Virus record (IMG/VR): IMGVR_UViG_3300025141_000047
Location: 28,799 to 92,798 of that record
DNA from: a virus
Direction: 5' to 3' (one strand)
DNA: 64,000 nucleotides
The notes beneath the pieces were generated by a model that made no database searches, had not been told where the DNA came from, and worked only from the letters and a program-made list of their open reading frames with translations. Below are positions 21,326-63,383 of the stretch, piece by piece (position 1 is the first letter of the stretch; every line of letters starts with the position of its first letter). Made by a program: the position numbers and the translations under genes.

Positions 21326-21354
21326 CTTTTTCATCTCCATTTATTTTTTGATTT

Positions 21355-44255: not shown

Positions 44256-44768
44256 ATGTCCGATGTGAATTTGATTGAAGCGGTGCATACCCTACGATCA
44301 TACAACATTGCATTAAATGGAATGACAAATGACCCTCAAAGCATCTCTTCATGGATTACTCGATATGCTGAGAACTCAGGAAAAGCCCCTAATTTTACCC
44401 AAGAGGCCGCTATTGGTTTGCTTTGTCATTTAGGAAACCCAATTTATGTGTATGCAAATCTAAGCCCTCTTCAACAACAATGGTCTGGGATATTCGCAAG
44501 TGCGGAACAGGTTTTGATTCAAGAAGCAAACTGGCAAAACACCCAACATTCGCAAAATAGCCAAACCTCTTTTGCACGATTGTTTGGAACAGATAAAGAA
44601 TGGATTCAACTTTACGCTCAATCACTACAATATCCAATGGATATTTCATTTGAGTATTTTGTGAATAAAATTATCTCCGATCTCCGAACCTGTCAAGGTT
44701 CAAGTGGTGCAGGTGGAATCTCTCATTCACCAATGACTCCGCCGAGTATGCAACAACAGATACCTTAG
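44256..44768 (+). CDS. Hypothetical protein, the only credible plus-strand gene
   Basis: 170 aa ORF filling a gap with no competing minus-strand gene; stop overlaps the convergent MTase stop. Confidence 0.65.
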   Translation: MSDVNLIEAVHTLRSYNIALNGMTNDPQSISSWITRYAENSGKAPNFTQEAAIGLLCHLGNPIYVYANLSPLQQQWSGIFASAEQVLIQEANWQNTQHSQNSQTSFARLFGTDKEWIQLYAQSLQYPMDISFEYFVNKIISDLRTCQGSSGAGGISHSPMTPPSMQQQIP

Positions 44769-47059
44769 AATAAAGTGCGTTGCGCTGGCTGAGGATTCTT
44801 TGCACGTTCCCATGCTGATTGGAATGCGTCTTGATCAATGTTCGCCATAGCCATAAGTTCTCCAACCGTTCCTCTTGTGTTTGGATCGGAACTTGAAAGG
44901 TCTTTTCGACCCAATTCATGGATTGTAAATCCAGCATCACGCAACGGTTCAACAATTGAAGGGTGCATTGAATTGAAAACCGTAGTCGGAATGCCCCTGT
45001 TCTTTGCATCAATCATTTGTTGAATGAGCCGTTCTTGCTCATCCTTTCCAAAGAAACCATGTGCGCCCTCTTCACCAAAGTAAGGAGGGTCAAATGTCAA
45101 TAGGTTCTTGTCGGCTTTCATTTGGTCTTTGATGTCGTCATAGAACTCAAAGGCATTACCTGTTCTCCAATCCCAGTCTTTCATAGCATCATGCCAGGGT
45201 GTGAAATCATGTTCCCCGACCCCCCCTCGAATTGGAGTTGGTCGGAAAGCGTTGCCCCCTGGTTGAATACGGCCTTTGTATCGGTCTTTTTCAGGGTCGT
45301 AAAATCCAGCATCCTTCATTTGTTGGAAAAATGAACCTGCTAATTCTTCATCTTCGGGGATATGTTGCTTTGAACGTGTAGTTCCTGGTGGAGTTGAATA
45401 TGGATTATCCCATGAAGGCATTTCTTTTCCTTTGCCGTATCGAACCAAACTGTTGAAGCCAGTCAATTGAAGCATATAGAAAATCTCAGCCATTTTATCA
45501 TACTCTTCGGGAGTTGCAGTTCCACTTGCTGCCTTTTCCCTCAATCCAGCGTATTGATTGCGGAGATTGTAAAAATGTGCTGGAATAAAAGTTCTGTTGC
45601 CTTCACCGAAACGATTCTTCATCTCTTCCGTCATTGTTCCGATATTCATTTGACCTAATGTTGGATGAGGGATTGTGATTGGTTCGCCCACCCCCACATT
45701 GTATTGTTCAGGGTCTATTTTCATTGGTTCTCGGATGATTCTTCGCATTAAATTGCCTATATCTGGGTTTATGTCGTTAATGATTGCTCTTGATGGTTTA
45801 AACCCCAATGAGAGTCCTCCACCACCACCGAATGTTTCAATCATTTCACGATCTCCAAGCGTTTCACGCAATGCGCCCATTATTTGGGAATACATGGGAT
45901 TGTTTTTGACTCCTTGAAGTCGAAACGCCGTAGGTAATGCTTGCCTTCGGCTAAAATCGCCAGACGATGGATGCGGCATCTTTTCAAGACTCATTTCATC
46001 TCGTATTTGTATGCTCTCTAAAGCCCTGCGGATAACATCGCCAGATAAAGCAGCATCCCATGATTCAAGACCTGCATTTGTCAAATCACGTGGATCGAAG
46101 TAAATTCCATGTGTTCCTGTGGTGATTCCACGTGATAATGCAGGGCGTAAATCCCCTGTAATGCTCATTGGAACTGGAACCCCTTCAAATCGGTGTCCTG
46201 ATGGATCAACATATTCCAAATAACGGCCTCCGCCTTGTTGTATGCTATCTCTCACCCTATCTGGTGCTTCATTTTGAGCAAACTGCAAAGGTATTTTCAA
46301 CAATGGATCAACTGAACCAGATACTTTGTAGTCAAGCGGCTCACGCCAGGGATGCCCTGCATCGACACGATACCTTCTATTATCAAATTGGAATCTCTTT
46401 CTTCCAAGAGAACGGTCTTTGATGTCATAAACGTCATACCCAAATCGAGGGGCTTCAATCAATTGCCCACCTGCATTCCAAGAAACTTGGGCATCGCCGT
46501 ATGGATTGCGATCCAAAACAATTTCTTGATTCATCCCTAAAATCTCTTGAGGACTACGCTTTCCTTCTATCAAGTCCATGAGTTCTTGATGTTCTAAATT
46601 TCCTCTCGACCATAGGTGTTCAGTTCGTTGTGGGTTTTTTCTTGGGTCTTTTTCCCTCAACACATACGCATTTTTTTGGGCGTTCCTACTCACGTCAAAA
46701 TGAGGGTCACGGAGAGGTAAAAAATTAGAGATTGATGTTAAACTATCCCCTATTTTCGGAAAGTTCCTTTTTACTGTCAAAACGCCTGTATCTCGCCTAA
46801 TATCTCCACTTGGCAAGCGACCAGGTGATATATGACCTGCATTCGCTAAATTTCTAAATGCCGATATGTTGAATGGTCGTTCCTTTTTATCGCCAGAAGG
46901 ATAATTGCGCCAATCTTCACGGAAAGTGTTTAATTGACCTTTCATGTTCTCAAGAGGATATGCGTTCACGCCATCTAATGAAATCGTTCCTAATTCTGGC
47001 CGATCTCGCTTTTGAGTATCGAGGCTATCCCACCACGCCTTCTCGAATATGTCCGACAT
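44765..47059 (-). CDS. Unknown N-terminal domain fused to a Dam-like (D12 class) N6-adenine DNA methyltransferase
   Basis: FRLQGVK, ETFGGGG, IINDINPD, GFNSLVRY and FDPPY motifs; C-terminal QRTLF. Confidence 0.85.
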   Translation of the reverse strand: MSDIFEKAWWDSLDTQKRDRPELGTISLDGVNAYPLENMKGQLNTFREDWRNYPSGDKKERPFNISAFRNLANAGHISPGRLPSGDIRRDTGVLTVKRNFPKIGDSLTSISNFLPLRDPHFDVSRNAQKNAYVLREKDPRKNPQRTEHLWSRGNLEHQELMDLIEGKRSPQEILGMNQEIVLDRNPYGDAQVSWNAGGQLIEAPRFGYDVYDIKDRSLGRKRFQFDNRRYRVDAGHPWREPLDYKVSGSVDPLLKIPLQFAQNEAPDRVRDSIQQGGGRYLEYVDPSGHRFEGVPVPMSITGDLRPALSRGITTGTHGIYFDPRDLTNAGLESWDAALSGDVIRRALESIQIRDEMSLEKMPHPSSGDFSRRQALPTAFRLQGVKNNPMYSQIMGALRETLGDREMIETFGGGGGLSLGFKPSRAIINDINPDIGNLMRRIIREPMKIDPEQYNVGVGEPITIPHPTLGQMNIGTMTEEMKNRFGEGNRTFIPAHFYNLRNQYAGLREKAASGTATPEEYDKMAEIFYMLQLTGFNSLVRYGKGKEMPSWDNPYSTPPGTTRSKQHIPEDEELAGSFFQQMKDAGFYDPEKDRYKGRIQPGGNAFRPTPIRGGVGEHDFTPWHDAMKDWDWRTGNAFEFYDDIKDQMKADKNLLTFDPPYFGEEGAHGFFGKDEQERLIQQMIDAKNRGIPTTVFNSMHPSIVEPLRDAGFTIHELGRKDLSSSDPNTRGTVGELMAMANIDQDAFQSAWERAKNPQPAQRTLF

Positions 47060-48183
47060 TATGCCCCCTCCCCTCGATTAAGCCTTATTTTCCCAACCTG
47101 TGGTTTGTTGATATATGAAACATTAGGAACATCACCATCCATACAGGCCAAGCAATTTGCGCTCTCTTCTGGACCGTATGTTGCGTTTGGAACGCAAGCC
47201 TTTGCCGATGAATTGGGGTCATCTTTCGGACAAAAATGCGTATCTCCAACTATTGCTGAATCAGGCAACATTCCCGTATTGACAAGCCATTCATCCCATA
47301 CTTCTGATCTCAATGTTTGAGGATGGTCTAAGACCCTGCGCTGTCCTGGATTCAAAACTCCGTGTTCTCCAACAACATTTCGATTCCATTCATCATCAAT
47401 CGTTTGATTCCTAAACGGCATTGACATTCTTAATCTAACATTTGGAGGCAACGCATCATGAGCATAACCTCTTGCTGACAAGACTTTATTCACCATTCCA
47501 AACTCTCTTGTTGGAATCCAATGAATCACGTCTGGATTCAAAGTCGCCATATCAAGAAGCATAGCCAAATGTTCAGGTGAATGCAAATCTCCCGAATCAA
47601 ACATACGGAATACGGGATAGCCGTTATGTGATTCTGTGGGGATCTGTGAAGCCAATTGAGAATGATAACCGATAGGGTCTTGCAGCATATCATTGTAAGC
47701 CTTTAATTGATTTCGAGTCGCATTGTTGTTATTGTAGGTGAATCCCTCAGCATAGCACCCATAGCAAGTTGAATCTCTTTTGTCTTTCAAATGTTTTCCA
47801 GTCGCACATAGTTCCGTTGGATATGATGTTGAGCGTGAAGGCATTGTTGTTGTTTCAGCCAAATAAACAGGCAAACGTCTATCCGAATCCCCCATTGGAT
47901 TGCTAAAATCAATGTTAGGAAGGTTTCTTGTTGCGTGGTGTTCCGCCAACAGGTTTTGATTCAAAGGATAATTCATTTTGACCTTACGAAGATCGGTCAT
48001 TTTTCTTTCGCCTTCGGGCGAATTGATGTAATTTTGAACTTCAATACCGCCCTTTGGGAACTTTTCAGGGGCATAAAGCAACTCATTCCACGTGAAATCC
48101 ATTGGGTCAATTTGCTTTTGACCTCTTGGACCGTCAATCAAAGGCATTTTTAACAATGACCAAACGGTTTCAAAGGCTTGCAT
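47059..48183 (-). CDS. Leader-bearing Gp88-like Cys-rich protein (possible Fe-S/radical-SAM-like fold)
   Basis: MQAFETVWSLLK leader; C...CYGCYA, FRMFDSGDL, WIPTRE and C-terminal CP...C...CLAC. Confidence 0.65.
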   Translation of the reverse strand: MQAFETVWSLLKMPLIDGPRGQKQIDPMDFTWNELLYAPEKFPKGGIEVQNYINSPEGERKMTDLRKVKMNYPLNQNLLAEHHATRNLPNIDFSNPMGDSDRRLPVYLAETTTMPSRSTSYPTELCATGKHLKDKRDSTCYGCYAEGFTYNNNNATRNQLKAYNDMLQDPIGYHSQLASQIPTESHNGYPVFRMFDSGDLHSPEHLAMLLDMATLNPDVIHWIPTREFGMVNKVLSARGYAHDALPPNVRLRMSMPFRNQTIDDEWNRNVVGEHGVLNPGQRRVLDHPQTLRSEVWDEWLVNTGMLPDSAIVGDTHFCPKDDPNSSAKACVPNATYGPEESANCLACMDGDVPNVSYINKPQVGKIRLNRGEGA

Positions 48184-48188
48184 AAATC

Positions 48189-48533
48189 TCAATCCTTCTT
48201 CACTTTAGCATGAAGCCGCCTAAGCGTTTCACTTTGGAGGTTTGCTGGCTTTCTGGTTGCAGGTTTCTTTGGAGGCTCATTCCCCTTTGCCCTCGCAATC
48301 ATACGATCCATCGTTGAATTTCCAGTTGGGTTGTCTTTCTTTGGTTTTTCAGTGGCCTTATTTTCCTTTGGCTTATTTATTTCAGCCATATTATCATCAA
48401 CTGCCGCATCAATATCCTTGTTGCGGTCACTTTCATTCCACCATGCTTCTTTAGCGAGTAAATCCCATACACGGTCAAAGCATTCGCCAGCCATGTGATC
48501 GGCAAAGCGACTTTGGCTATCAATTTGACTCAT
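48189..48533 (-). CDS. Leader-bearing small basic protein
   Basis: CFDRVWDLLAK near the N-terminus; coupled on both sides. Confidence 0.6.
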   Translation of the reverse strand: MSQIDSQSRFADHMAGECFDRVWDLLAKEAWWNESDRNKDIDAAVDDNMAEINKPKENKATEKPKKDNPTGNSTMDRMIARAKGNEPPKKPATRKPANLQSETLRRLHAKVKKD

Positions 48534-49852
48534 CTAAAGTCGTCAAGAAGAGTCTTTTGTTGATTTGAGCCGAGAATCCCACGACCTATTGCATTTGATA
48601 CTGAACCGTGAACAACATTCCCAATCATTTGATCAAGCGCATTTATTCTTTTCCCTGATGAGGCTATGTAAGGAGATGCTGACATAGCCGATGAAATATC
48701 ATAATCGGGGCGAATGCCTTGAATCATCATTACTTCTTGTGGAGTTAATTTACGATTGTAGGCGAGGGTGGGCATATTGTGAGTAATTCCTGTCACATGA
48801 GAAGTTATTGGTTTTCGATGTTGGAATGTGGTCGGCAAACCTGTTTTTTTGCTTGTTGCGTTTAAATCATGCCATTGTGGATATTCGCCCTTGTGTTTTC
48901 CAGTTCCAGGATTTGTCCCGCCCGATTGAGATATGAAACTTGTATTCATGAGGTATTCTGCAACTTCTGGGCTGATGTTTCCCTGTGCAAGCATCCCATC
49001 AATCACGGCTTTCCTTTGTGGCTTATTTTCTTGCTCATCACGTTCAAGGTGCGGCAAATAATCCAAAACGCTTGGACTCATTTTTGTCCCAGGTATTGGT
49101 TTGCGATCACGATGATAATGCGTTGGTTCGGCTTTCCAACCTTCGCCAATGAATGTTCGGCCTCTTGTTGAAGGTGCGCCAAAATTGATTGCATCCAATT
49201 TAGGATGGTTGCGAAGCAATTGCATTACACGCTTTTGAAACGGTTTGCTCACATAAGGTTCAAGCAAATGTGGGTTTTCTTGAATGAATTTTGCTACTGC
49301 TGGTGCTTCTTCAAGCGACCATGATTGAAGGTCAATGTCTGGGTGCTTCATCATCTGTTCAACGGTGTAAAGTGCGTTTCCGATCATTGGGAATGCCGAC
49401 ATACGACTTTCATGAATTTCTTCATCTGTTTTACCTGCTGGTCCAGTCCTTCTTTGGGCATTTGTGAATGCTTGACAAGGAGGTGAGGCGTGATAATGGA
49501 TTTTGCGACCTTGTGATAAGTCGGCGTATTGTTCGACTAAATCATCAGGATGAAGCATACCTTGTTCTGTTCCGATATAGCCCTCAATGATTTTTCCATC
49601 ATGGTTTGCTCGCCTTACATCATTTGCTGCTCTCCATGCTTCAACCGATGCTAATGTTGGAATCCCTGCTCTCGATAGCCCCTCATCCATGCCGCCCATC
49701 CCTGCAAACTCCGTAAAAGCCCCCCAGTCATTACGCATTGGCATTTGAGGGAAACGTCTGTCAAAATCAGCCCTCATCTGTTGTAAATCCCAATCTGTGG
49801 GGGCTTTCATGAGCATAGATGACCAAGCCTCCTGAAATAAAGGCTCGCTCAT
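48530..49852 (-). CDS. Leader-bearing C5-cytosine DNA methyltransferase
   Basis: Motif I EFAGMGG, IV SPPCQAF, VI LEEA, VIII TRGRTF, IX RKLTPQEVMMIQG, X QMIGNVV; leader LFQEAWSSMLMK. Confidence 0.88.
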   Translation of the reverse strand: MSEPLFQEAWSSMLMKAPTDWDLQQMRADFDRRFPQMPMRNDWGAFTEFAGMGGMDEGLSRAGIPTLASVEAWRAANDVRRANHDGKIIEGYIGTEQGMLHPDDLVEQYADLSQGRKIHYHASPPCQAFTNAQRRTGPAGKTDEEIHESRMSAFPMIGNALYTVEQMMKHPDIDLQSWSLEEAPAVAKFIQENPHLLEPYVSKPFQKRVMQLLRNHPKLDAINFGAPSTRGRTFIGEGWKAEPTHYHRDRKPIPGTKMSPSVLDYLPHLERDEQENKPQRKAVIDGMLAQGNISPEVAEYLMNTSFISQSGGTNPGTGKHKGEYPQWHDLNATSKKTGLPTTFQHRKPITSHVTGITHNMPTLAYNRKLTPQEVMMIQGIRPDYDISSAMSASPYIASSGKRINALDQMIGNVVHGSVSNAIGRGILGSNQQKTLLDDFR

Positions 49853-49936
49853 AGTTGTCTGCATAATCGCCCCAGATAAAAGCCTATCCCTTTCATCAGG
49901 TGGATGGAGAGGCTTTAATAACAAAACACTCAAGAT

Positions 49937-50035: not shown

Positions 50036-50037
50036 TT

Positions 50038-51558
50038 TCAAGCGAGATCCTCATCGAAGTCTATTCCATCCCAGGCATCTTTGTCTAAATTGTGAACACG
50101 TTCTAACATCTCAGCAGGTGTAAGATCGTTAATTGAGCGACCATCTCCGACACCTTTCCAATTAGCGATTGCATCCAAATCATCAAAGTGCCTCAAACTC
50201 ATGAATTGATTGTTCCTTATTGCTGAATCGCCCGTTGATGAGTCGGTTGCCCATCTCGTTTTGGGATTGCCGCAACCGACACATGGAGGGGCTAAAACAT
50301 CTGACCCCCTATTGCCTATGCCTCTTAAGGGTCGCATGGTGAGGGGGTCAATGTTCATTTCAACACGACCCATTTTGTTGTTTTCACCTAACACGCCAAA
50401 CCATTGTTTAGGATCCCCTGCAAAAGAAGGATTCCAAACTCCTATGCCTTCGCTTCCTTCAAATTGATACCCCCTGCATTTCGGGCAAAACACATCATGT
50501 GGTGGCTTGCCACCGTCAATCACCGTAGGTATTTTTCTTTGAGTTCTTGCCACAAAATCCCTATCCAGCATCATTTCAGGGAATAACTCAGGATATTTTT
50601 TTGCATTCTCTCTTTGGTTTATGAATCCATAAGGTCCACCCTCAAGCGGAGAAGTTCGGGCGAGCCGATCTCCATAGAACGGTAGGATTCCATAACCCTC
50701 TTCATCCCATATATCCCCTGCATCGGAACGGAGATCATACATCATGCTATCATAAGGCTTGCTTGCATCGGGGCAGTATTCCTTTCTTCCATCCTCCGAG
50801 ATTATGCAACGCTCACACACTTCTTTGTCGGGGTGTTCTTCGGTGGTGATTCTTGGGTAATAGTGGTAATTTTTGTTGCCAAAAATAGGCGCATCTCTTG
50901 GTTTGACCATCTTTTGTCGTTCCACATACGGTTCTCCGCCCCTATCGGTGTAAGTCCGATCCTCCCATCTTTCGCCAACCCCTGCATCCCTTCTTCGACC
51001 TGTGATTGGATGCCAGGGTCCAGAATAAGTTCCTGGTGCGACTTTGTATGTTTTCCCATCATCGTCTATGAACTCATCATTTTTTGGGCGATCCCACGAC
51101 CATTCAAGACCTTCTGGGGTCAAAGAAGGGGGGTGTAATCCATCAGGGGCGTTGCTACATGGTCTTTGACTTGCACCTAATCGGTGAGTCATCCCTTCGT
51201 ATTCATCATCGCCTGATGAATGAAATGTCATGAGATTTTCCGATTTTTCCCTGTTTCTTGCGTAAGGTTCGTATTTTTTGTCATATTCAATGATTTTATC
51301 AATTTGTTCAGGGGTGAATTGATGCCCAAAATATGTTTTGCCTTTGCGGTATTTATCCATTATCAATTCATTATATCCCTTATCGGCAAACCGATCCAAT
51401 ATCGAAAGGACAATTGGGTGTTGTGTTCTCCTTGTTTTTTCATACATTGCTTGAGGGAAGGATTGCGTTTCAAACTGGTGAAGTTCTTCGGGCAGCGTTT
51501 CAAAAACCGTTGAGTCATAATCCTTGAGCAAAACCCAAGCGGTGTCGAAAGCGGTCAT
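50038..51558 (-). CDS. Leader-bearing hypothetical protein with CxxC motifs
   Basis: MTAFDTAWVLLK; CERC, CPKC and CVGC. Confidence 0.75.
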   Translation of the reverse strand: MTAFDTAWVLLKDYDSTVFETLPEELHQFETQSFPQAMYEKTRRTQHPIVLSILDRFADKGYNELIMDKYRKGKTYFGHQFTPEQIDKIIEYDKKYEPYARNREKSENLMTFHSSGDDEYEGMTHRLGASQRPCSNAPDGLHPPSLTPEGLEWSWDRPKNDEFIDDDGKTYKVAPGTYSGPWHPITGRRRDAGVGERWEDRTYTDRGGEPYVERQKMVKPRDAPIFGNKNYHYYPRITTEEHPDKEVCERCIISEDGRKEYCPDASKPYDSMMYDLRSDAGDIWDEEGYGILPFYGDRLARTSPLEGGPYGFINQRENAKKYPELFPEMMLDRDFVARTQRKIPTVIDGGKPPHDVFCPKCRGYQFEGSEGIGVWNPSFAGDPKQWFGVLGENNKMGRVEMNIDPLTMRPLRGIGNRGSDVLAPPCVGCGNPKTRWATDSSTGDSAIRNNQFMSLRHFDDLDAIANWKGVGDGRSINDLTPAEMLERVHNLDKDAWDGIDFDEDLA

Positions 51559-52034
51559 ATCAAGTCATCCTCGCTTACTTTGGAATTAGGTCTTGTCAAT
51601 TCACCACTTTCAAGCCTTTTCATGGCTTCTTCAACTGGTTTTCCCCTAAACGTGCGTCTTGTTGATCGGGTTTCATCCTTTGTTGATTGAAGTTCATGCC
51701 TTTCTTTCATCTCAGGGTCGGCAGCCCAATTTTCTTTTCGCTTTTCTTGATCACGTGCTATCCGTCTTGCATTCTCTTCCGAGCCTGGTTCATAAGTTCT
51801 CAAAGCATTCTTTTCACGTTGCTTCATTCGAGATGCTTCATTCGCCCAATAATGAACAACACCACGACTTACTGGTATTCCTTCCTCGTTAAACAAACGC
51901 CATATTGCCGCTTGGCTCATCCCTTCGGATGCAAGTTGAGCAATACGCTTAATGTCCTCTTCGGTGAGCGTGTATCTCCGATCTGCTGCTGGCATTTTCA
52001 TCAAGTCCCAAGCGGTGTCAAAGGCGTTCACCAT
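51555..52034 (-). CDS. Leader-bearing helix-turn-helix protein
   Basis: AFDTAWDLMK; LTEEDIKRIAQLASEGMSQAAIWRLF...VSRGVVHYW. Confidence 0.75.
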   Translation of the reverse strand: MVNAFDTAWDLMKMPAADRRYTLTEEDIKRIAQLASEGMSQAAIWRLFNEEGIPVSRGVVHYWANEASRMKQREKNALRTYEPGSEENARRIARDQEKRKENWAADPEMKERHELQSTKDETRSTRRTFRGKPVEEAMKRLESGELTRPNSKVSEDDLI

Positions 52035-52582
52035 CCCGCCTCCCTAAGTTGCTGGCGATATTCATTTAATTGGTTTTTTCGTTTTTGTTTTGCTTGTTCC
52101 CATTCAAACCAAATATCATCGGAAGCATCAAGGTCTTCCATCTCGGAGAGTTCTGCAATTGCTTGTTGTCGCCCCTGTTCAGTCATAGGCCAGCGTATCT
52201 CTTCTAAATCCATACTTGGGTATGGTCCTTGTTCGTGAATAGATATGTGCTTAGGTTCAATGCGGTGTGGATAGCCATGAGTTATTATTTCAGGAAGATT
52301 TGAAGTTGTATTCATTCGCCTGTGAGGGACAGATTCAATCCCCTCGTCTGTGATGTGTAGTATGGTTGGTGGGCTTCCAGAACGGGTCGCCTGTTTCCTC
52401 GCATGATACCTTGCCTCTTTTTCATCCCCCGCCATGAAAAAGGCAGCAGGGTTGCGTCTAAAAGAGGGGCGAGGATCTTTTTGGGCTTTTGTTCCACCAC
52501 TTAGGATCTTTTGCGCCGAAGCAAAATCGGTTCCGTGATAGGGCATTTTGAGTAAAGACCATGCGGTATCGAAGGCGGTCAT
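52028..52582 (-). CDS. Leader-bearing ADP-ribosyltransferase-like protein
   Basis: MTAFDTAWSLLK then MPYHGT...KILSGG...EARYHA...ILHI...IEPKHI, a Tpt1/KptA-like ART pattern. Confidence 0.7.
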   Translation of the reverse strand: MTAFDTAWSLLKMPYHGTDFASAQKILSGGTKAQKDPRPSFRRNPAAFFMAGDEKEARYHARKQATRSGSPPTILHITDEGIESVPHRRMNTTSNLPEIITHGYPHRIEPKHISIHEQGPYPSMDLEEIRWPMTEQGRQQAIAELSEMEDLDASDDIWFEWEQAKQKRKNQLNEYRQQLREAGW

Positions 52583-54609: not shown

Positions 54610-55159
54610 TGTCCTCTCTCTCCCTCAGTGATGGTATATCACCTTGTAATTGCCACATAGCCTCATGTTCTCTTTCCAACACCCAATCACGGTGTTGCTC
54701 ATCTAATTCTTCATCGGTTTCCTTCACCCCATACCAGTCTTCGGCACCAGGTCCAAACCAAGCATTCTTTCCTAACTCCCTCGCCCAATGTTGTAATAGG
54801 TCTGTGCTATCAAGAGCAACGCCAGCACCAAAGGTTGGGGAGTCATGCAAGTGTTCATGCTCAAGAACATGGATGAGGTCGGCCATATTCAGTTCATTGT
54901 CTGGATCAAAATCTCTCCAATGTTCATGTGCTAAATTGACCACTGGAACATTACCTGCGGCATTATCCCAGAAAGCCTCATTTTCGGCTGTATCTTGGAT
55001 TCTATCGGGGTCAAATGATTCCATCTCGTCGTGATACACCCATCTGCGGGGAATAACCATTGATCTTGTTGGCGCATATCCTAATGCGTTTTCTTTGCCT
55101 TCTTCTGGATTAAATGTGAAATCCTTGAGCAAAGCCCAAGCCGTATCAAATGCCGTCAA
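54596..55159 (-). CDS. Leader-bearing HExxH zincin-like protein
   Basis: TTG start overlapping the upstream stop; TAFDTAWALLK; VNL...LEHEHLH...HEAMW. Confidence 0.72.
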   Translation of the reverse strand: MTAFDTAWALLKDFTFNPEEGKENALGYAPTRSMVIPRRWVYHDEMESFDPDRIQDTAENEAFWDNAAGNVPVVNLAHEHWRDFDPDNELNMADLIHVLEHEHLHDSPTFGAGVALDSTDLLQHWARELGKNAWFGPGAEDWYGVKETDEELDEQHRDWVLEREHEAMWQLQGDIPSLREREDNDGI

Positions 55160-56025
55160 AACCACACCGCCTTGAACTTGCTCTTGGTTTCATTGTATTT
55201 GTTTTTAGCGGCAATTTTCAATGTTGGGTTCTTGATTTTGTGCGCCAACCTGCGAGCCGCTTTGAGTTCGGACAACTTAACGCCACAGTCAATGCCTCGC
55301 TTCTTGCACCACTTGACCAAATCCTCAGTCGCAAGGTTCGCACCAGAACTCTCAACAAACGGACAGCCGCCAAGACCACCGATGCTGGAATCAAACTCTT
55401 GAATGCCGTTTGAATATCCAGTCCCTACATTGTTCATCAAATGACGGCCATGATGGAGATGCAAAGCCAAGTCATGTGTAAATTCCTGTGCAGTATCTAT
55501 TCCCGTTGATATGTCAAAAGGCGTTGCCGTTCCTTTGGTGTCGCATAAAACAATTTTCTTTCCAAACCTCAAACCGTGTTGGATCGCCAATGCAAGTGAT
55601 TCCTTACTTGACTCAAACGCCTCCGAGATATAAACACGGACAAGTTCAGGGTCTATCCCATCAAGGGCTTCCTCGTAGTTGTCGAGAATGCGTTCTAATT
55701 TCAATCCGTAGTTGGCAACATTGAATGTGTCGCATGGTGAAAAGAAAATGTTGTAATGAGTCATGCCTGATGCAATCGCCCGATCCATCCCTCTTTGATT
55801 AGGGACAAGAACTGAAAATCCTGTCTTATCATCAAAGGCAGCGCACACCTGTTCAGCATCAGCCATGTTCGGAACGGCCTTTGGATGAACAAACGATGTG
55901 ATTTCAATTTGAGTCAAGCCAGCATCACGGAGATGTTTGATGAGTTGGATTTTATCATCGGTGGATGGAACGTGCGGCAGGTTTTGTAGCCCGTCACGTG
56001 GTCCGACTTCAAAAATGCGAATCAT
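55156..56025 (-). CDS. hmgL: Hydroxymethylglutaryl-CoA lyase (DRE-TIM family), no leader
   Basis: EVGPRDGLQN, SFVHPKAVP, LVPN, DT, HLH, GLGGCPF and NLATEDL; ATGA-coupled start. Confidence 0.88.
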   Translation of the reverse strand: MIRIFEVGPRDGLQNLPHVPSTDDKIQLIKHLRDAGLTQIEITSFVHPKAVPNMADAEQVCAAFDDKTGFSVLVPNQRGMDRAIASGMTHYNIFFSPCDTFNVANYGLKLERILDNYEEALDGIDPELVRVYISEAFESSKESLALAIQHGLRFGKKIVLCDTKGTATPFDISTGIDTAQEFTHDLALHLHHGRHLMNNVGTGYSNGIQEFDSSIGGLGGCPFVESSGANLATEDLVKWCKKRGIDCGVKLSELKAARRLAHKIKNPTLKIAAKNKYNETKSKFKAVWF

Positions 56026-56513
56026 GGCTCTCCCCCCTTCGGATAAATCCCATAGAGCCGTAGCATTCGCCACTTCTCATCCTCGTCAATTCCTGGCGTT
56101 CCAGTCCATGCGCCATATTCTTGAAAACGTTCCCAATCATTATCCACCTTTGCTTGAAGGCGAGCCTTTTCGTCTTCATCAACGTCTTCGCTATTCAATC
56201 CAAACATCGACACTTGATTCCATAAATCATCGGTATAAGGGGGATGAAGTGCTTGGTGCATATTCTCATGCCCCATTATTTGCATAACTCTCTCCATCAA
56301 CTCTTCATCTGTTCGAAATACACGTTGTTGCCCACCCCATCCATCGGGGTCATCAGGATGGTTTGTTTTGAAATCGGAAACATGACTGGCGAGATTGACA
56401 TAAGGCGTATCTGTTATTGGATCGTAAGCACCTTGTTGGATGATACCTGGAAAACCTGTATCGTATCGGAACTCTTTGAGCAAAGCCCAAGCAGCATCAA
56501 AACAATTAGACAA
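56022..56513 (-). CDS. Leader-bearing HExxH zincin-like protein
   Basis: TTG start with GGGAGG SD; CFDAAWALLK; VNL...MGHENMH...QEYGAW. Confidence 0.72.
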   Translation of the reverse strand: MSNCFDAAWALLKEFRYDTGFPGIIQQGAYDPITDTPYVNLASHVSDFKTNHPDDPDGWGGQQRVFRTDEELMERVMQIMGHENMHQALHPPYTDDLWNQVSMFGLNSEDVDEDEKARLQAKVDNDWERFQEYGAWTGTPGIDEDEKWRMLRLYGIYPKGGEP

Positions 56514-58014
56514 TGTAAGCCCTCCCGCAATCAAAAGGACAGGAAACTCCGCCGAGCATTCGATTATACATGACCTCTTCACCTGGCTTTATCAATCTCC
56601 CACAGACTTTGCAGTTGCCTGAGTATTTAGCAGGGAATTTACCCGAAAAAGGTTGAGCCTTCATCAAGCCCCATGATTTCATAAAGGCTCTTGAAGAATC
56701 AAAATCAACTCCACGATCTTCTGCTAAACCGTATTGGTTAATAATGTCATCAAGCAAAGCATCGCTTCCAAATTTAGGGTCATAGTAATGCCAGGGTGTT
56801 CTCATGTAAGGATTTGACTTGACCTTCGGTTTCAATCCCCAACCCTGTTGGCGGAATGAACCAGTCGGCTCACCGAACCTTTCTTTCAATGCTTCAAGGA
56901 GTTCTGGGTTTTCGTCATAACCATAGGGTGGAATGGTTGAAAGCGCATCATTCCCCAAAATATAATCATCCCAACGATTCTTTCCTTTCACCCAATCAAC
57001 AGGAACGGAGTCATAGTTCTCAAAGAACATTTCAGGATTGGCAATAGCAAAATCAAGCGAGTCAGGATCGGAGAGCATGGTGTTAAGCGTTGCTTGCCTT
57101 GCCGTTTCAAAATTGTTATCCATGTATTGAGATAATTCATCTCGCAACTGCAAACGCCCAATGCCCTCTTGAATGTCTTGCGGCAAATCACCAAAGCCTT
57201 CAATTCCTTCATCTGGCAATTTTTGGATTTGGCGAATCAAGGCTCTTGACGTGCGCTCGGCTTGTTTCTTCCTGTTCCTTGCATCATCAATGTCGCCAAA
57301 TTGGAAGTTGCCAGCACCAGTTCTTTTTCCTGTTGTTGCCGTTTGGTCAAGAATTGCATTGATGAGATTTCTTTTTGTTCGACTGCTCTCGTTAGCGTCA
57401 ATGTTTGCATCTCTAATCCTTTTGACATAACGATCTCCAACATCAGGATGACTCTTCATTCCTTGACGGAACTTGAGGCTTTCATGCGGATATTCCGACA
57501 TATAGGCAACGAACTCAGCCACACTTTTTTCATCCGAGTTCGAATTAGTATTGAACAACCCATACCCTCCACGCTGCCTGTTTGCTTGTAATTCTTGCCA
57601 ATCGTAATTCATACGCTCAGGGTCGGTTAAGTCGTGGGCGGAATGCCCTGCCTCATGAGATGCCGTATTACCAATCTGGCGAATCGCTGCTTGTTCCTTT
57701 GCATCTCGCATCCTTTTGCCATATTCTTCTGCTGGAAAATCATTGTTCATCATCATGTCATTATATTCTTCACGTGAAACGATGTCCTTTGCGTTTGCCC
57801 TTCTGTAAATCTCACCAGGATAAATCCAATCACGACCAACCACTTCACGATCATAATCGGAATAAGTCAAGTCGCCCTCATCATCACGCCCAATAGGAAC
57901 TCGATAACGGTAAGTTTCATCTCCCGAAGTAAAGTGGACTCCGAAGGGATCATTCCTTCTCCGTTCTCCTAAGAAACGGCCACCCACCTTGAAGTCGGAT
58001 TTCTTAATCATCAA
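56506..58014 (-). CDS. HExxH zincin-like protein with internal leader and C-terminal Zn finger
   Basis: ASHEAGH...AEFVAY; AFMKSWGLMK then AKYSGNCKVCG...C...C. Confidence 0.7.
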   Translation of the reverse strand: MMIKKSDFKVGGRFLGERRRNDPFGVHFTSGDETYRYRVPIGRDDEGDLTYSDYDREVVGRDWIYPGEIYRRANAKDIVSREEYNDMMMNNDFPAEEYGKRMRDAKEQAAIRQIGNTASHEAGHSAHDLTDPERMNYDWQELQANRQRGGYGLFNTNSNSDEKSVAEFVAYMSEYPHESLKFRQGMKSHPDVGDRYVKRIRDANIDANESSRTKRNLINAILDQTATTGKRTGAGNFQFGDIDDARNRKKQAERTSRALIRQIQKLPDEGIEGFGDLPQDIQEGIGRLQLRDELSQYMDNNFETARQATLNTMLSDPDSLDFAIANPEMFFENYDSVPVDWVKGKNRWDDYILGNDALSTIPPYGYDENPELLEALKERFGEPTGSFRQQGWGLKPKVKSNPYMRTPWHYYDPKFGSDALLDDIINQYGLAEDRGVDFDSSRAFMKSWGLMKAQPFSGKFPAKYSGNCKVCGRLIKPGEEVMYNRMLGGVSCPFDCGRAYIV

Positions 58015-58850
58015 TACCCCTCCAACCATTTTGGTTTGCCGTGAACGGTCAATTCATTTGGATTATCCGAATACGGTTCAAGGAGTTCCAGATAATTAAG
58101 GAAGTGTCGCAACTTGTAATTAGGGTCGTTGGCTTTATCGGTTCTTTCAAAATTATTGAGAATACGTGAGGCAGGGTGCTGAATGCCATAAGAACCCAAC
58201 AAGGCTTCTTGGTGGCTTTCTGGATCATCAACAGCCCACCCCATCTCTTGCCCGAACATATCAAGGTCAAACATACGAACTAAACCTTTTGAATCAACGC
58301 CATAATTTTGATGTTGCCGATCTCCAACCAATGCTGATAATATCGTATCAACTTCTCGAATCTGTTCATCCGAACCATCAACACGGTTCAAACGTGGCTG
58401 AACACGATATTTATTTTCCATCCCAACCATTTCATTCTCCCATATCGGTAAAGAGGGCGAACCCATCTCTCCCACGATAGGGTAGCCTATTTCTTCTAAA
58501 AATCGGATTGAATCATCATGTTGCCCTCTTTTGTCAAATTGCCTTTGATGCCATGTGCCGAGATAAGGCACTTTAGCGACAAAATCCTTGTCAAGTGGAT
58601 GGGTAAATGTTCCAACCTTTGTGCCTTCTCCTAAAAAATCGGGGTATTTATCTGGGGATTCAATGGCTGTATCTCCATCAATTTCTTTGTGAGTTCTTCT
58701 GTCTCGAAACCTTTCCCCATCTTCTTCTGGATTAGGATATAGACTCAAATAAGAATCAATGTATTCCAAGTCTAACAAATGTTCAGCATTCTCACGCCAA
58801 TTCGGAACGTATTGTTTCAAAATACCCCACGCTCGGTCAAAGGCGGTCAT
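58011..58850 (-). CDS. Leader-bearing protein-kinase-like protein
   Basis: MTAFDRAWGILK; LGEGT loop, VAKVP lysine, GDRQHQNYG catalytic loop and MFDLD. Confidence 0.75.
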   Translation of the reverse strand: MTAFDRAWGILKQYVPNWRENAEHLLDLEYIDSYLSLYPNPEEDGERFRDRRTHKEIDGDTAIESPDKYPDFLGEGTKVGTFTHPLDKDFVAKVPYLGTWHQRQFDKRGQHDDSIRFLEEIGYPIVGEMGSPSLPIWENEMVGMENKYRVQPRLNRVDGSDEQIREVDTILSALVGDRQHQNYGVDSKGLVRMFDLDMFGQEMGWAVDDPESHQEALLGSYGIQHPASRILNNFERTDKANDPNYKLRHFLNYLELLEPYSDNPNELTVHGKPKWLEGY

Positions 58851-59371
58851 GTCTTATACCTCCGCATCAATTCATCAATGTGAGCCTGTCTTTCATCAGC
58901 CCCATATTCACTTCCCGATGTAGCAACAATTGGATGATCCCAACCGTGTTCATCGTTTCTCCCCATCAGTCCTTCAATCAATTCCCACATTTCATTTGAG
59001 TCCATCTCTTCAAATTGTAGGTCGGGGAATGGACTTTTGGACTCATGATCTCGGACTCCCCCAATTTGAGTAAAACCCGCACCAGTATGGCCTTCATCTC
59101 CTTCTAAACGGTGTATTTGTTCTGTTTTTGGGGCAATTCTCACGATTGGCTCTCCTTCGTGCATTGGAGTATCAAGCATTTGTGAACCAAAAACGGCATA
59201 GGCGAGGGCGGTGTCTAAATCAGGAGTCCAATATCCCGTATCGGCCATGCCTTGTTTTGCCCCTTGATATAGGGTTTCATGTTCGTGAAAAGACGAAAGA
59301 GGATCGGAGGGGTCGTCAATGATTTCATAGGGCATTTTTAGCAAGTTCCATGCTCGGTCAAAGGCGGTCAT
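58847..59371 (-). CDS. Leader-bearing ART-like protein
   Basis: MTAFDRAWNLLK; LYQG...YWTPDLDTALAYA. Confidence 0.6.
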   Translation of the reverse strand: MTAFDRAWNLLKMPYEIIDDPSDPLSSFHEHETLYQGAKQGMADTGYWTPDLDTALAYAVFGSQMLDTPMHEGEPIVRIAPKTEQIHRLEGDEGHTGAGFTQIGGVRDHESKSPFPDLQFEEMDSNEMWELIEGLMGRNDEHGWDHPIVATSGSEYGADERQAHIDELMRRYKT

Positions 59372-59840
59372 TATTCCACCTCTCAAGTGCTTCATTTGCT
59401 AATGGGGTCATGGCGGCTCTCCATCTATGCCTTGTTGGTTGTTTAGGCAAAGGTAAATCGTCAGCATCCATAGCGGCATAATACTTGTCATTCATTTCCT
59501 TTTCCCAATCCGCATAGGGTTGCCCTCTCCATATCTCCTGTGAATGTTCGGCGGGAATATCAAACGGATAATAACCATAACCCGCATATTCGTCATAATC
59601 ACCAACGCCTTCTATGGTTCGTGGTAAATAATGGACTAAGGGGGCTTCGTCGGGTTTTGCTGAACCGAGAGCATAAGCGAGAGCCGTAGCCATAGAATCG
59701 CTCGCCCAAATCCCTTTACGATCCTTTTCAACCTGCCTTGCAGGTATTACGCCTTCTTGCATGGCTTGATCGTAGTATTTGTCCTGTGTCCCTCGTAGTG
59801 GTGCTTTCACCACATACCATGCTCGGTCAAAGGCGGTCAT
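59358..59840 (-). CDS. Leader-bearing ART-like protein
   Basis: MTAFDRAWYVVK; LRGT...QEGVIP...IWASDSMATALAYA...IPAEH. Confidence 0.62.
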   Translation of the reverse strand: MTAFDRAWYVVKAPLRGTQDKYYDQAMQEGVIPARQVEKDRKGIWASDSMATALAYALGSAKPDEAPLVHYLPRTIEGVGDYDEYAGYGYYPFDIPAEHSQEIWRGQPYADWEKEMNDKYYAAMDADDLPLPKQPTRHRWRAAMTPLANEALERWNNDRL

Positions 59841-59995
59841 GACTCTCCCTTCCTCAAACCATTCCAACAAAGTTCTTGCAGTTCTTCATCACTGGTGAAT
59901 ATCACTACATTGCTTCCGAGATCGTCAAGAGCCATCCACATTGTAAAGAAACCTGCAATGAAAGCAAGAACAAACCAGACCCACAGATTAAACAT
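59837..59995 (-). CDS. Small single-TM protein, 52 aa
   Basis: Below the track cut-off. AGGAGGTGA SD; MFNLWVWFVLAFIAGFFTMWMAL; ATGA overlap with the next gene. Confidence 0.65.
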   Translation of the reverse strand: MFNLWVWFVLAFIAGFFTMWMALDDLGSNVVIFTSDEELQELCWNGLRKGES

Positions 59996-60017
59996 TATAT
60001 CACCTCCTTATTCTTCA

Positions 60018-63000
60018 TCATGAATAATCCCTCAAACGGTTAAACAATGCAAAGGCTTCATCATTTGACATGGCGGGGTTATCGGACATACCCTGCCAAA
60101 ACTCAACGTCACGTGGAAACACCTTCATGAAATTATCATAAATCGCTTGTTGTTTTGGAGAGTTCTCAAACAAACTTCTATCAGGCATATTCGCCAGCAA
60201 TTCAGCAAGCCGTGTTGATTTAGGAAGAGGGTAAGAATCGTGCAATGCGCCTATTGTTTGGATGAAATCTGTGTTTGGGTTATCGTCTTGCGGGTTGAAC
60301 CATCTCGGACCACTTCTGTATTTTATCCCTGAGTCATCACTTTGACCACCTTCTCCGTAGTTGCTAACATAGTCTTCTTCACCAGTTCCTAAATCCATGA
60401 CTCTTTTTCCGTCTTCTGGCTGCATCCCTTCATCAGCCGCATAATTTGACCCTCGAACTCTAAAATTGGTCGGAAGTGTTCTTGGACCTCTCGCATCAGC
60501 AAACGGTAATTTTCCATTATTCCCGTAGGCCATTCCAATTGGATATTTGTTATTTGGATCAACTATGAATGGCATTGGATTAGGGAACAAGCCTATTGCT
60601 TCGTCATCGTTCCCAGGTGTATTGAACGTTCTTACCGAACTCACAGGGAGTATGGCTCTTTTTCCAGGGTTCAATGCGAGATAACGCATCAACGGATTAT
60701 CTCTCATACGGTCTTTTAATTCAAACAATCTATCTGGCCTATCTCTAAATCCGCCACTCCATTCTTTACCTGAGATTGAATCAAAACGTTCTTTGGCGGC
60801 TGCTATGTCCTCTTCGGTTGGATTGCCAGTTATCCTATTCCAAGTATCAACGGCTTCTTCATAGGATTGGTGGTATAGGTCTTTACCTGCGGCTTCTCTC
60901 TCGGCTTTTGTTTGAAAAGTCCATTGCTCATCCCTCATACTGGGGTGATCGTAAGCCATCTTCATATCAAGGTAAGGCTGGCGGTTTCGATTGTATGTAG
61001 CCATGTCTTCATCTGTCATTTCGTATTTTGATTGCAGTTCTCCTGGGTGTCGCTTGAATCGAGCAAATTTGCCTTCTTCATCAAACATAGGGGCGAACCC
61101 CTTCACGTAATGTGAAAAATCTATGTTGTCTTGGAGATTGATACCTTCTGGAGTTATCCCAAACAATTCTTCATATTGAGGATTTTCCCTCATGATTTCA
61201 TCAAAAGGCTGTCGAGAATATGGGCGGCGTAATCTTGTTGAATAAGGAAGAGGCTTACCTGTTTCAGCATCCAAAGGAACGTTGCCTCCCGCTTGAGGTC
61301 GGAAAACTCTTTCCGATACATATTTTGGCATACCATACACTGGGTCCATCTCAAATCCAACTGAACGTGTTGGCAAATCCTGTCCGAACATTTTCGCTGC
61401 CGCCTTATCTCTTGCATCATAAGTGTCTCCTTCTTTACGTGGCCTTAACATTGGTCCGTAAGGTCCATCATAACCGCCCGTTCCAACTCGCATTGTTGGC
61501 GAACCTCTAAGGTAAAACGATGTTAGAAGCGGCCTTCCCGTTTCGTCTAATCCAATGTTCGGACCTAATCTCGAAGACGCATCAAGTTGTAAAAATCTCA
61601 GCAATGGGTCATCCCATTCACCACCACCTATGTTGCTCATGCGTTTATTTTCGTCATACCGATCTCTCCCCGCTTCCATCGACAACTGCTTATATCGCCG
61701 CAACTCTTGATTCAAAGCATTGGCTAAACGCCCTTGCGGGGTATCGGGTCCGTATGTGGGTTTGAATTTATCAGGTTCCTCTCGGTTCTGTTGGGCAAAG
61801 TTCCTCGCCCATTCATGAACATTAACACCTTGTCTTTGAAGGAACTCACGGCCACGTGCTGTGTCTAATTCAGCGTTATTCCATGCCGCAGCCAAGTCAT
61901 CTGGAACGTTTTGACCTGCGAACTTGTGACCCGCCACATTATCACGGAACATATCTTGCCAAGTGTAGTCATCAAAGTATTCGTCATCAGGCCACCTTTT
62001 TCTCGGACCCGACGATACATCAGGGACTACATCGACTTTATCTTGCATGATCGCTCGGATTTTTCCTTCATCATCACCAAATCCAACTTCTCCCATCGGA
62101 GTCATTGGCGCAACTGGATAACCCATCGCTGCAAGTGCGTGGCTAAAGGCAATCGGCAATGTAGCCCCTGCGTTTAATTTGAAAACTTTGTTTGGATTGG
62201 CAGGGTTTTGATAAACGGCTTTTGTTCTCTTGTCAATGAATGGACCGCCCCGATGTGCAAATTGTCGCTGAGGCATAGCAGGGTCAAGTCTTTGCCCGTA
62301 AGTCCTCATCCATTCCATCTGTTCAGGAGTTATGTCGCCGCCCATTCCAATTGGGAAAGGCGGTATATCAGCCTTGATCAACAGTTCTTCATAAGAATTA
62401 ACTTCAATCACTTCTATTTTGGTGATGGAGTCCCACGCAACCTCAGCAGGATCGGAACTCGCAACGAACATATCATGGTCTTTATCCGCTTCCGAAAAAT
62501 CAGTTCCCATTGCCTGTTGCTTACAGGCGTTGTATTCCATCAAGGCTTGGCGAACCTGGTCTTTGCGAAGTTGCTCTTTGTCGCTATCATACTCATGGCC
62601 GCTTATATCCACATCACGTGGCAATGGGTCATGAGGGGGGTTATGTTTCCAAGTTGAGGCTATACGATCATATTCCTCTCGGCTTTCCCAATCAAGATCC
62701 CATATCTCAAGTTGCACCTCAACCCTTGATGCAAACTCTTCACAGTCCTTATCGGAATAAACGTCTTCCAATTCACGGTGCAATAGTTCCATGCCCCAAG
62801 TATCAATAGGAATGGCGTTGATGGTTTCTTTCAAAGAACGGCAACATTGACCTGCGCTTGCATCATAACCTGCTTTATCGGCATCATCACGCATCACATT
62901 TTCGAGTCCATCTTGTAATATCCGATTTGAAAGATCCGTAGCAGCCCTTTGCTGTGGCGATAATTCCTCATAAGGAACGTTCACCTTCCAGTTTGGTTCC

Positions 63001-63383
63001 TTAATGATAGAATCCCACGATCTGCGAAAATAGTCCTCCATTCCCTTTGGAGGCTTACCATACATTGCTTTCATTTTAGCACGTGCCGCAGCATCAGCAA
63101 CAAGACTTTCAGCCATCGCCTGTTCTATTTCATCCGAAGCATCACTGGTTTCGCAAAAACCATGTTCACCACCACATGAGCAAGGGCAACAGTCCTCCGC
63201 TTTATCGGGCATATTATGGCCTCTTAAACCACACTTCCAACAAGTTTCACAGCATTCCTCAGCCTCATGAGTTTCCTGATACCCTGTTGCACATTTGCCA
63301 CATTGAACCGTTCCATCATCATGTTCGATAAGAGGGTGTATTTTGGTGATAGAGTCCCAACTTGCATTGAAAATATCCACCAT
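60018..63383 (-). CDS. Putative polyprotein with three leader-like motifs: Cys-rich module, helical module, degenerate kinase-like module
   Basis: IFNASWDSITK (start), YFRRSWDSIIK (~63000-63030) and EVAWDSITK (~62418-62444). Confidence 0.7.
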   Translation of the reverse strand: MVDIFNASWDSITKIHPLIEHDDGTVQCGKCATGYQETHEAEECCETCWKCGLRGHNMPDKAEDCCPCSCGGEHGFCETSDASDEIEQAMAESLVADAAARAKMKAMYGKPPKGMEDYFRRSWDSIIKEPNWKVNVPYEELSPQQRAATDLSNRILQDGLENVMRDDADKAGYDASAGQCCRSLKETINAIPIDTWGMELLHRELEDVYSDKDCEEFASRVEVQLEIWDLDWESREEYDRIASTWKHNPPHDPLPRDVDISGHEYDSDKEQLRKDQVRQALMEYNACKQQAMGTDFSEADKDHDMFVASSDPAEVAWDSITKIEVIEVNSYEELLIKADIPPFPIGMGGDITPEQMEWMRTYGQRLDPAMPQRQFAHRGGPFIDKRTKAVYQNPANPNKVFKLNAGATLPIAFSHALAAMGYPVAPMTPMGEVGFGDDEGKIRAIMQDKVDVVPDVSSGPRKRWPDDEYFDDYTWQDMFRDNVAGHKFAGQNVPDDLAAAWNNAELDTARGREFLQRQGVNVHEWARNFAQQNREEPDKFKPTYGPDTPQGRLANALNQELRRYKQLSMEAGRDRYDENKRMSNIGGGEWDDPLLRFLQLDASSRLGPNIGLDETGRPLLTSFYLRGSPTMRVGTGGYDGPYGPMLRPRKEGDTYDARDKAAAKMFGQDLPTRSVGFEMDPVYGMPKYVSERVFRPQAGGNVPLDAETGKPLPYSTRLRRPYSRQPFDEIMRENPQYEELFGITPEGINLQDNIDFSHYVKGFAPMFDEEGKFARFKRHPGELQSKYEMTDEDMATYNRNRQPYLDMKMAYDHPSMRDEQWTFQTKAEREAAGKDLYHQSYEEAVDTWNRITGNPTEEDIAAAKERFDSISGKEWSGGFRDRPDRLFELKDRMRDNPLMRYLALNPGKRAILPVSSVRTFNTPGNDDEAIGLFPNPMPFIVDPNNKYPIGMAYGNNGKLPFADARGPRTLPTNFRVRGSNYAADEGMQPEDGKRVMDLGTGEEDYVSNYGEGGQSDDSGIKYRSGPRWFNPQDDNPNTDFIQTIGALHDSYPLPKSTRLAELLANMPDRSLFENSPKQQAIYDNFMKVFPRDVEFWQGMSDNPAMSNDEAFALFNRLRDYS

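Follow-up and report, generated by a model that had tools for sequence, protein, structure and literature searches.

A short N-terminal peptide on unrelated enzymes of an archaeal tailed virus is a candidate label for loading into the virus head

The stretch of DNA analysed here (hereafter the window) comprises 64,000 nucleotides, bases 28799-92798 of the 92,798-bp linear IMG/VR virus record IMGVR_UViG_3300025141_000047, whose completeness is estimated at 88%. Between 44.8 and 63.4 kb of the window lies an array of 17 genes, and 14 of these are headed by the same 12-residue peptide, M-T-A-F-D-x-A-W-x-L-L-K, which we call the tag; the proteins that follow it are called cargos. The array is encoded on the minus strand, as are the other tags and head-protein sites located in the window below and the structural genes: the major capsid protein, of the SU10 type (Pfam SU10_MCP, 20177-21340), a prohead protease (Pfam Peptidase_S78) fused to a scaffold region (21355-22683), the portal (28207-30009) and the large terminase (31236-32672). 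A preliminary description, made from the letters of the sequence, had listed the tagged genes, and all 14 full tags were found where it had placed them, at starts 63383, 59840, 59371, 58850, 56513 (TTG), 55159 (TTG), 54609, 53664, 52582, 52034, 51558, 49852, 48533/48494 and 48183. A fifteenth, degenerate copy had been listed at 47059, where the F-x3-W is indeed present but the Leu-Leu-Lys end is missing.

The first array gene, 60018-63383, encodes a protein of 1121 residues whose N-terminal tag (63342..63383) is of a W-D-S-I-T-K subtype. A second copy lies inside the same protein at 63000..63032, at about residue 120 counted from the 63383 start, and a third, tag-like copy, A-W-D-S-I-T-K, at 62418..62447. 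The first 350 residues therefore hold three tags of the W-D-S-I-x-K subtype, which also occurs in the tag of a basic protein described below, and judging by its sequence the protein looks like a chain of three small modules and an 800-residue body. Canonical tags then head gene 59358-59840 (160 residues, without family match; tag at 59805..59840), gene 58847-59371 (174 residues; tag at 59336..59371), whose product resembles the largest cargo cluster of related viruses and is a candidate member of it only, and gene 58011-58850 (279 residues; tag at 58815..58850). Gene 56506-58029 (507 residues, with an HExxH motif) has no tag at its N-terminus and carries one near its C-terminus (56659..56685), followed directly by a 50-residue zinc-ribbon module. 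Gene 56022-56513 (163 residues, HExxH) starts at a TTG, with its tag at 56475..56513 and a Shine-Dalgarno-like GGAGGG 6 nt upstream. Next to it stands an HMGL-like enzyme (Pfam; 55156..56073, the real start probably being the inner Met at 56022), which has no tag at all. Two further canonical tags head gene 54596-55159 (187 residues, TTG start, H-E-H-x-H; tag at 55124..55159) and gene 53974-54609 (211 residues, HExxH; tag at 54574..54609).

In the remainder of the array, the two-module gene 52579-53664 (361 residues) has one tag at its N-terminus (53626..53664) and another at the junction of its modules (52996..53022), after which M-P-Y-H-G-T, the start of an ADP-ribosyltransferase-like module, follows directly. 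Gene 52028-52582 (184 residues; canonical tag at 52547..52582) encodes a protein modelled with an ADP-ribosyltransferase fold, and is followed by genes 51555-52034 (159 residues; tag at 51996..52034) and 50038-51558 (506 residues, without family match; canonical tag at 51523..51558). A C5 DNA methyltransferase (48530-49852) bears the variant S-E-P-x-F-x-x-A-W-S-S-M-L-M-K (49805..49852), the small gene 48189-48533 a variant ending in L-L-A-K (48450..48494), and a GP88-family gene (47059-48183) a tag at 48148..48183. The last array gene, an N6 DNA methyltransferase (44765-47059), is headed by the degenerate copy (47027..47059), reduced to F-x3-W. Two more copies stand outside the array: one inside the protein encoded at 37864-39321 (38653..38682), right before a very Lys/Arg-rich region, and one directly before the zinc ribbon of a small structural-module protein (17697-18134; tag at 17844..17870), where the tag or a degraded copy of it was present in all four relatives whose junction was compared.

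This recurrence greatly exceeds what residue composition gives. In the six-frame translation of the 92.8-kb genome the pattern F-x3-W-x-[LIVMS]-[LIVMT]-K matches 18 times, against a mean of 0.7 and a maximum of 5 in 30 residue shuffles, and looser rules yield about 25 copies; the breakdown is 14 at the heads of array genes, one degenerate, four inside array proteins, two elsewhere in the window and six upstream of it. A search of IMG/VR with a back-translated tag pattern returned 78 stretches; these lie on about 70 contigs, 4-143 kb in length, and several copies are present on many of the contigs. The logo built from 307 unique tags of related contigs has 2-4.3 bits per column from position -3 to +8, with consensus M(-3) T A F D x A W x L L K(+8), then Ala or Met and then Pro; about 1 bit is left at each of +9 and +10, and less than 0.35 bits per column from +11 onwards. 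A Met stands at -3 or -4 in 234 of the 307 tags, while 28 lie more than 40 residues into an open frame and have no Met within six residues. The tag is amphipathic as a helix, with Phe, Trp and the second Leu on one face, and its helical hydrophobic moment of 0.46-0.66 ranks among the highest 2.5% of shuffles.

The 251 distinct cargos that follow these tags fall into 122 BLAST clusters, 81 of them singletons, and among the tags of this stretch the codons of the conserved Thr, Ala, Phe, Asp, Leu and Lys all differ synonymously. Since the codons vary freely, selection acts on the peptide. The preliminary description had proposed one modular peptide on unrelated cargos, with synonymous codon variation and with similarity between cargos ending after the Lys, and each of these points is borne out, information collapsing past +10, two residues beyond the Lys. 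Common descent of the tagged proteins from one paralog family was considered and rejected, as unrelated folds and families are found among the cargos.

The capsid protein places the virus among the archaeal tailed viruses. In a phage collection it matched only the haloarchaeal siphoviruses HVTV-1, HCTV-1 and HCTV-5 (about 33% identity) and one virus of Methanofastidiosa, and a halovirus-type capsid-protein match is a signature of magroviruses (PMC5434244). In addition, the 1.2-Mb Poseidoniales single-cell genome AG-422-I20 contains a 106-kb viral contig whose capsid protein is 81% identical to that of our virus, and all 11 tag matches of that genome fall on this contig, which points directly to the host of this virus clade. 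The assignment to an archaeal virus, already made in the preliminary description, holds because of these two results. Four of five tag-bearing contigs checked for a capsid protein have one with 64-77% identity to that of this virus; the fifth, with a single internal copy of the tag, has no capsid-protein match. Capsid proteins at other tag-bearing loci go down to about 60% identity. Three genomes that were mapped have 7, about 13 and about 22 tags, most of them upstream of the terminase gene on the structural-gene strand.

A scan of host genomes had been proposed with the expectation of virus-only matches and variable cargo, and the outcome agrees with it: no host-genome tag appeared among the Poseidoniales searched, and the cargos are variable. 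A strict 12-residue DNA pattern was found in only three places in 596 Gb of prokaryotic genomes, the sole real one being the AG-422-I20 viral contig; the other two, in Glaciecola, do not fit the tag pattern and were rejected. A looser pattern gave four single matches in 200 other Poseidoniales genomes, none of them tag-like: three lie deep within long reading frames, two of which resemble CTP synthase, and the reading frame of the fourth is short and lacks a start Met. On the genomes searched, a motif of the host is rejected, and the tag is restricted to the virus lineage. It is undescribed in the literature that we searched, and a keyword search of two of the main magrovirus papers returned no such N-terminal motif.

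The array changes quickly around the tag. In a relative whose capsid protein is 95% identical, only about five of the 17 array genes have clear orthologs: the HExxH gene starting upstream of the HMGL-like enzyme (56022-56513), the HMGL-like enzyme itself, the C5 methyltransferase, the small gene 48189-48533 and the C-terminal half of the N6 methyltransferase. At the tags, DNA matches of 30-60 nt turn up again and again between arrays, and together with the low sharing of orthologs this makes the array a hypervariable locus in which the tag is the constant element. Of the N6 methyltransferase, residues 338-754, the methyltransferase part, are kept in the close relative at 72% identity, the first 337 residues being replaced.

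Two families of the array serve as internal controls. The HMGL-like enzyme, of pyruvate carboxyltransferase type, is conserved at 36-80% identity across more than 20 related viruses. An N-terminus could be recovered for 21 of its orthologs, and in none of them is it tagged; the gene resembles an auxiliary metabolic gene belonging to the virus clade. Since it stands untagged within the array, the tag cannot be a property of the region or of its translation starts. Close homologs of the GP88-family cargo (61-96% identity) are all tagged, whereas distant PF17338 homologs from elsewhere are shorter and untagged, and the tag has therefore been added to a shared enzyme core.

The nature of the cargos could be established for a minority. 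Pfam names four of the 17 array genes (the C5 and N6 DNA methyltransferases, GP88 and HMGL), and PHROGs, probed with 20 proteins, returned four matches, all to families of unknown function and two of them marginal (E about 0.01). For 52028-52582, an AlphaFold model built from a 17-member alignment has a mean predicted local distance difference test score (pLDDT) of 81.6. In this model the tag forms a helix of residues 3-11 (pLDDT about 61) that runs straight into the first strand at Y-H-G-T; pLDDT is low for residues 1-10, and the tag residues are not packed on the cargo. The best PDB matches of the model are KptA/Tpt1, DarT, exotoxin A, pertussis toxin S1 and RES, with E-values of 1.5e-3 and worse, and its matches among viral structures include an RNA 2'-phosphotransferase and DarT. 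Weak as the E-values are, the list is fully consistent, and the predicted fold is that of an ADP-ribosyltransferase; the His16 of Y-H-G-T is invariant in the 17 family members. HExxH motifs occur in 24 of the 251 cargos, against about 1.4 expected by a rough estimate from residue frequencies. The nearest Atlas clusters of 53974-54609 are zinc proteases of the M85/M91 type, a candidate label and a lead only, and small zinc-ribbon modules also stand after tags. Two tagged proteins, that of 37864-39321 and one at about 21969-22226 of the genome, have an extremely Lys/Arg-rich stretch right after the tag, and in their sequence they resemble DNA-condensing core proteins that a cut would set free. 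Of the cargo labels, the methyltransferases, GP88, one ADP-ribosyltransferase fold and an enrichment of HExxH stand; the kinase (58011-58850) is reduced to a weak structural candidate, again a lead only.

The end of the tag reappears in the head proteins. The Peptidase_S78 match of 21355-22683 scores 43.5 bits against a curated cut-off of 21 and covers residues 22-183. We searched 51 orthologs of this protease-scaffold and 60 of the capsid protein for tripeptides of the form hydrophobic-hydrophobic-X retained by at least 85% of the sequences. Six such sites end in Lys, four of them in the protease-scaffold (K22, K178, K304 and K324) and two in the capsid protein (K40 and K150); neither set of orthologs has one that ends in Arg or Glu. 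S-D-F-L-L-K (K22; 22618..22635), just before the S78 domain, and T-Y-T-I-L-K (K178; 22150..22167), at the junction of the protease and scaffold domains, are present in 51 of 51 orthologs and flank the Pfam domain exactly. Two N-V-I-K sites (K304 and K324; 21712..21783), found in 47 of 51, are conserved islands in a variable, low-complexity scaffold linker, and T-D-L-L-K (K40; 21221..21238), in 60 of 60, closes the propeptide of the capsid protein. Residue 40 is also where the homology with the capsid protein of HCTV-1 starts, and the HVTV-1 sequence aligned there reads Lys-Ala-Asp. In a distant group, whose protease is about 37% identical, the N-terminal site is kept as I-x-[IL]-[LV]-K amid an otherwise unrelated stretch. 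The residues that follow the conserved Lys of the head proteins (Ser, Met, Ala) are also the commonest after the Lys of the tag, and the propeptides of both the capsid protein and the protease have a Trp 9-10 residues before the Lys.

From their conservation and position, these hydrophobic-hydrophobic-Lys sites appear to be the cut motif of the protease, of which the tag would be a compact version. In HK97, gp4 cuts gp5 after Lys103. A cut after the Lys had been proposed from the outset, and it is now well motivated, since the end of the tag equals the conserved Lys sites of the head proteins; we consider that the S78 head protease probably cuts the tag at this Lys.

Starting from what is established directly (the tag and its modularity, selection on the peptide, restriction to the virus, turnover of the cargos and the match of the tag end to the head-protein sites), we favour, with a probability of about one half, the explanation that the tag is a portable address at the level of the protein, preceding the enzymes of a rapidly changing set or standing where the modules of larger proteins meet, and that it would load the tagged cargos into the prohead, which by analogy is the best reading. 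The helix of the tag would dock a cargo on a component of the assembling prohead, be it the scaffold-protease, the interior of the capsid protein or the core. The S78 protease would then cut after the Lys, as it is thought to do in the capsid protein, in the protease itself and in the scaffold, and native cargo would be freed inside the head. At the next infection the cargos would leave with the DNA and act as early enzymes of host takeover or anti-defence. Injection can hold only if loading is true, and docking, packaging and injection are all proposed with less assurance than the cut. The core-protein-like cargos rich in Lys and Arg, the position of the tagged genes on the structural strand, the helical shape of the tag and the likeness of the cargos to virion-delivered effectors (PMC5512222) all count in favour of loading.

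Several observations weigh against it. The head proteins compared are 60-97% identical, so that conservation alone is a weak argument there, and Leu-Leu-Lys is a short motif; the stronger argument for the link to the protease is where the sites lie, namely at the borders of domains and within a linker that varies. Phe and Trp, both invariant, stand 8 and 4 residues before the cut, past the usual reach of protease subsites, which suggests an added docking contact and implies a second partner. With about 20 different cargos per genome, some of 760-1120 residues, the load is heavy. Two weaker copies of the tag lie on the strand of the replication arm, and the C-termini of both methyltransferases are Q-x-x-L-x-x-F-like, resembling clamp-binding peptides, which suggests work at the replication fork. 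As to room in the head, HVTV-1 is the nearest cultured relative and its head is T=13 (PMC12810830), and a roomy capsid is therefore plausible. HVTV-1 also encodes, at 68622-72563 and a few genes upstream of its prohead protease gene, a protein of 1313 residues annotated as 'zeta toxin', roughly at the position that a 1151-residue head protein (22726-26181) occupies in our window.

Some of these same observations would be expected if the tag were a docking helix that is never cut and that recognizes another shared partner, for example a chaperone or thermosome, machinery for replication or degradation, a site on a membrane or a virus factory, much as the F-x3-W-x2-L helix of p53 binds MDM2. Phe, Trp and Leu on one face, the high hydrophobic moment and the invariance of Phe and Trp far from the putative cut agree with such a helix, N-terminal peptides of T4 that send proteins to GroEL are known (according to the work cited as ref. 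29 in PMC10052503), and the clamp-binding-like ends of the methyltransferases mean that these two enzymes may act in the cytoplasm. We nevertheless regard an uncut helix as unlikely, because it leaves unexplained both the invariant Lys and its match to the Lys sites at the borders of protease, scaffold and capsid propeptide, because internal tags stand exactly at module junctions, and because the virus record holds no chaperonin gene and no candidate hub was found. The Lys and the internal tags are accounted for if the tag is a processing site and nothing else, at which a viral or host protease would trim the tag and split multi-module proteins in the cytoplasm, activating or timing the enzymes without loading into the head. 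The tag end, matching the head-protein sites, and the internal tags at the module junctions of 52579-53664, 56506-58029 and 60018-63383 suit this explanation, as does the frequency of zincin-like peptidases among the cargos seen in the HExxH count, since such peptidases have been proposed as processors of multi-domain effectors (PMC5512222). However, losing 12 residues that the model leaves unpacked and with low pLDDT is not likely to control activity, the prohead proteases of this family act inside proheads, and a bare cut site needs no invariant Phe and Trp 4-8 residues upstream, all of which makes processing alone distinctly improbable.

Conservation at the level of DNA or RNA, either as a recombination joint for the swapping of cassettes or as a translation-start signal, would account for the 30-60 nt matches that recur between otherwise non-homologous arrays and for the G-rich, Shine-Dalgarno-like stretch that precedes most tags. 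As the main cause it is largely refuted and very improbable, given that synonymous codons vary at every conserved residue, that in-frame tags occur inside proteins far from any start, and that the HMGL-like gene of the same array has a normal start without a tag; a role as recombination joint could be a side effect. Loading into the prohead thus remains the reading that we prefer. Its widest form, in which a clade-wide label cut off by the head protease loads 7 to more than 20 exchanged enzymes per virion, drawn from more than 100 families and injected with the DNA, is put forward tentatively, at slightly less than even odds.

A few other features of the record were noted. No tRNA was found, and an Rfam scan of 43-64 kb gave no match. 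In the gene-poor and GC-richer last 450 bases of the record, adjoining the first array gene on its upstream side, the 10-mer RCACCCAGTC is present six times in region 63570-63900, with two copies in tandem. It has 9 matches in the window against 2.5 expected, six of the nine in this region, and the cluster may be a group of iterons or else an element with a regulatory or terminal role.

Magroviruses belong to the most abundant viruses that infect archaea in the surface ocean; as their hosts have not been brought into culture, almost nothing is known, to our knowledge, of how they take over cells. The tag marks, from sequence alone, the 10-25% of each genome most likely to serve in host takeover or counter-defence, even though nearly all of it is without family match. 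The arsenal so marked would comprise ADP-ribosyltransferases, zinc peptidases, DNA methyltransferases, kinase-like proteins, zinc-ribbon proteins and basic core proteins. If the loading reading is true, archaeal viruses would have their first known signal for the delivery of effectors, and no other virus is known to reuse a capsid-loading tag so widely; if confirmed, the tag would provide a compact cargo-loading signal for HK97-type shells. The tag also makes these claims testable without culture, through metaproteomes of viral fractions and recombinant proteins.

The closest parallel among known systems is the capsid targeting sequence (CTS) of T4, by which diverse internal proteins that share only a short N-terminal peptide enter the scaffolding core, the peptide being removed by the prohead protease (PMC3012670). 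As in IPI-III and Alt (Mullaney and Black 1996, PMC3012670), only an N-terminal peptide of about 10 residues is conserved, and the cargos are diverse and fast-evolving, in T4 including an ADP-ribosyltransferase and anti-restriction proteins. Our virus likewise has a short N-terminal peptide on unrelated proteins and a hypervariable locus in which only the tag is conserved. The CTS ends at the cut site of its own prohead protease, and the magrovirus tag ends like the conserved Lys sites of its head proteins, from which the specificity of the S78 protease would follow. The sequences themselves are dissimilar: neither homology to the CTS nor a gp21-type, Glu-cutting protease was found by sequence or Pfam, and while T4 gp21 cuts after Glu, the putative cut here is after Lys, by a protease of the S78 (HK97) type. 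Here, moreover, the host is an archaeon, up to about 20 genes per genome are tagged, 122 cargo clusters are served across the clade and the tag is reused inside multi-module proteins; packaging in magroviruses is, for its part, putative.

In phage P1, the Dar proteins (PMC9024508, PMC12810830) offer a second likeness, as an N-terminal signal loads a large DNA-modifying enzyme with an anti-restriction function. The first 30 residues of DarB are a capsid signal that can carry a foreign protein (PMC9024508), and DarA is trimmed by the prohead protease (PMC12810830). The P1 signal, however, serves one protein and needs an ordered set of helpers, whereas the peptide described here is short and common to many cargos. 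The cargo repertoire recalls instead the polyvalent and MuF-fused effectors (Iyer et al. 2017, PMC5512222), with their ADP-ribosyltransferases, zincin-like HExxH peptidases, DNA methyltransferases and kinase-like domains; the genes of these effectors lie beside packaging and head genes, and it has been proposed that the proteins accompany the DNA and undergo processing by proteases (PMC5512222). Genes for effector domains stand beside the head and packaging genes in our window too. Polyvalent domains are fused into a giant polypeptide or to a head protein, whereas those found here are mostly separate small genes, each with its tag, and only a few magrovirus proteins have 2-4 modules, with the tag at the junctions. 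No Pfam match to MuF was obtained among the proteins scanned, and most cargos are single-domain genes.

Encapsulins provide a last comparison, in that unrelated enzymes carry at one end a short peptide that takes them into a shell of HK97 fold. The shell protein of our virus has that fold as well, by its Pfam match to SU10_MCP, a family of HK97 fold, and its homology to halovirus capsid proteins. The peptides of encapsulin cargos are usually C-terminal, of a Gly-Ser-Leu type, and are kept, unlike the N-terminal F-x3-W-x-L-L-K of the magroviruses with its putative cut end. By analogy, then, the tag is best filed under the capsid-targeting-sequence principle, here at work in a virus of archaea and at a scale that is unusually large, the function of the tag being the part that we infer; if this is true, the principle by which T4 and P1 load internal proteins would extend to the archaeal branch of the tailed viruses.

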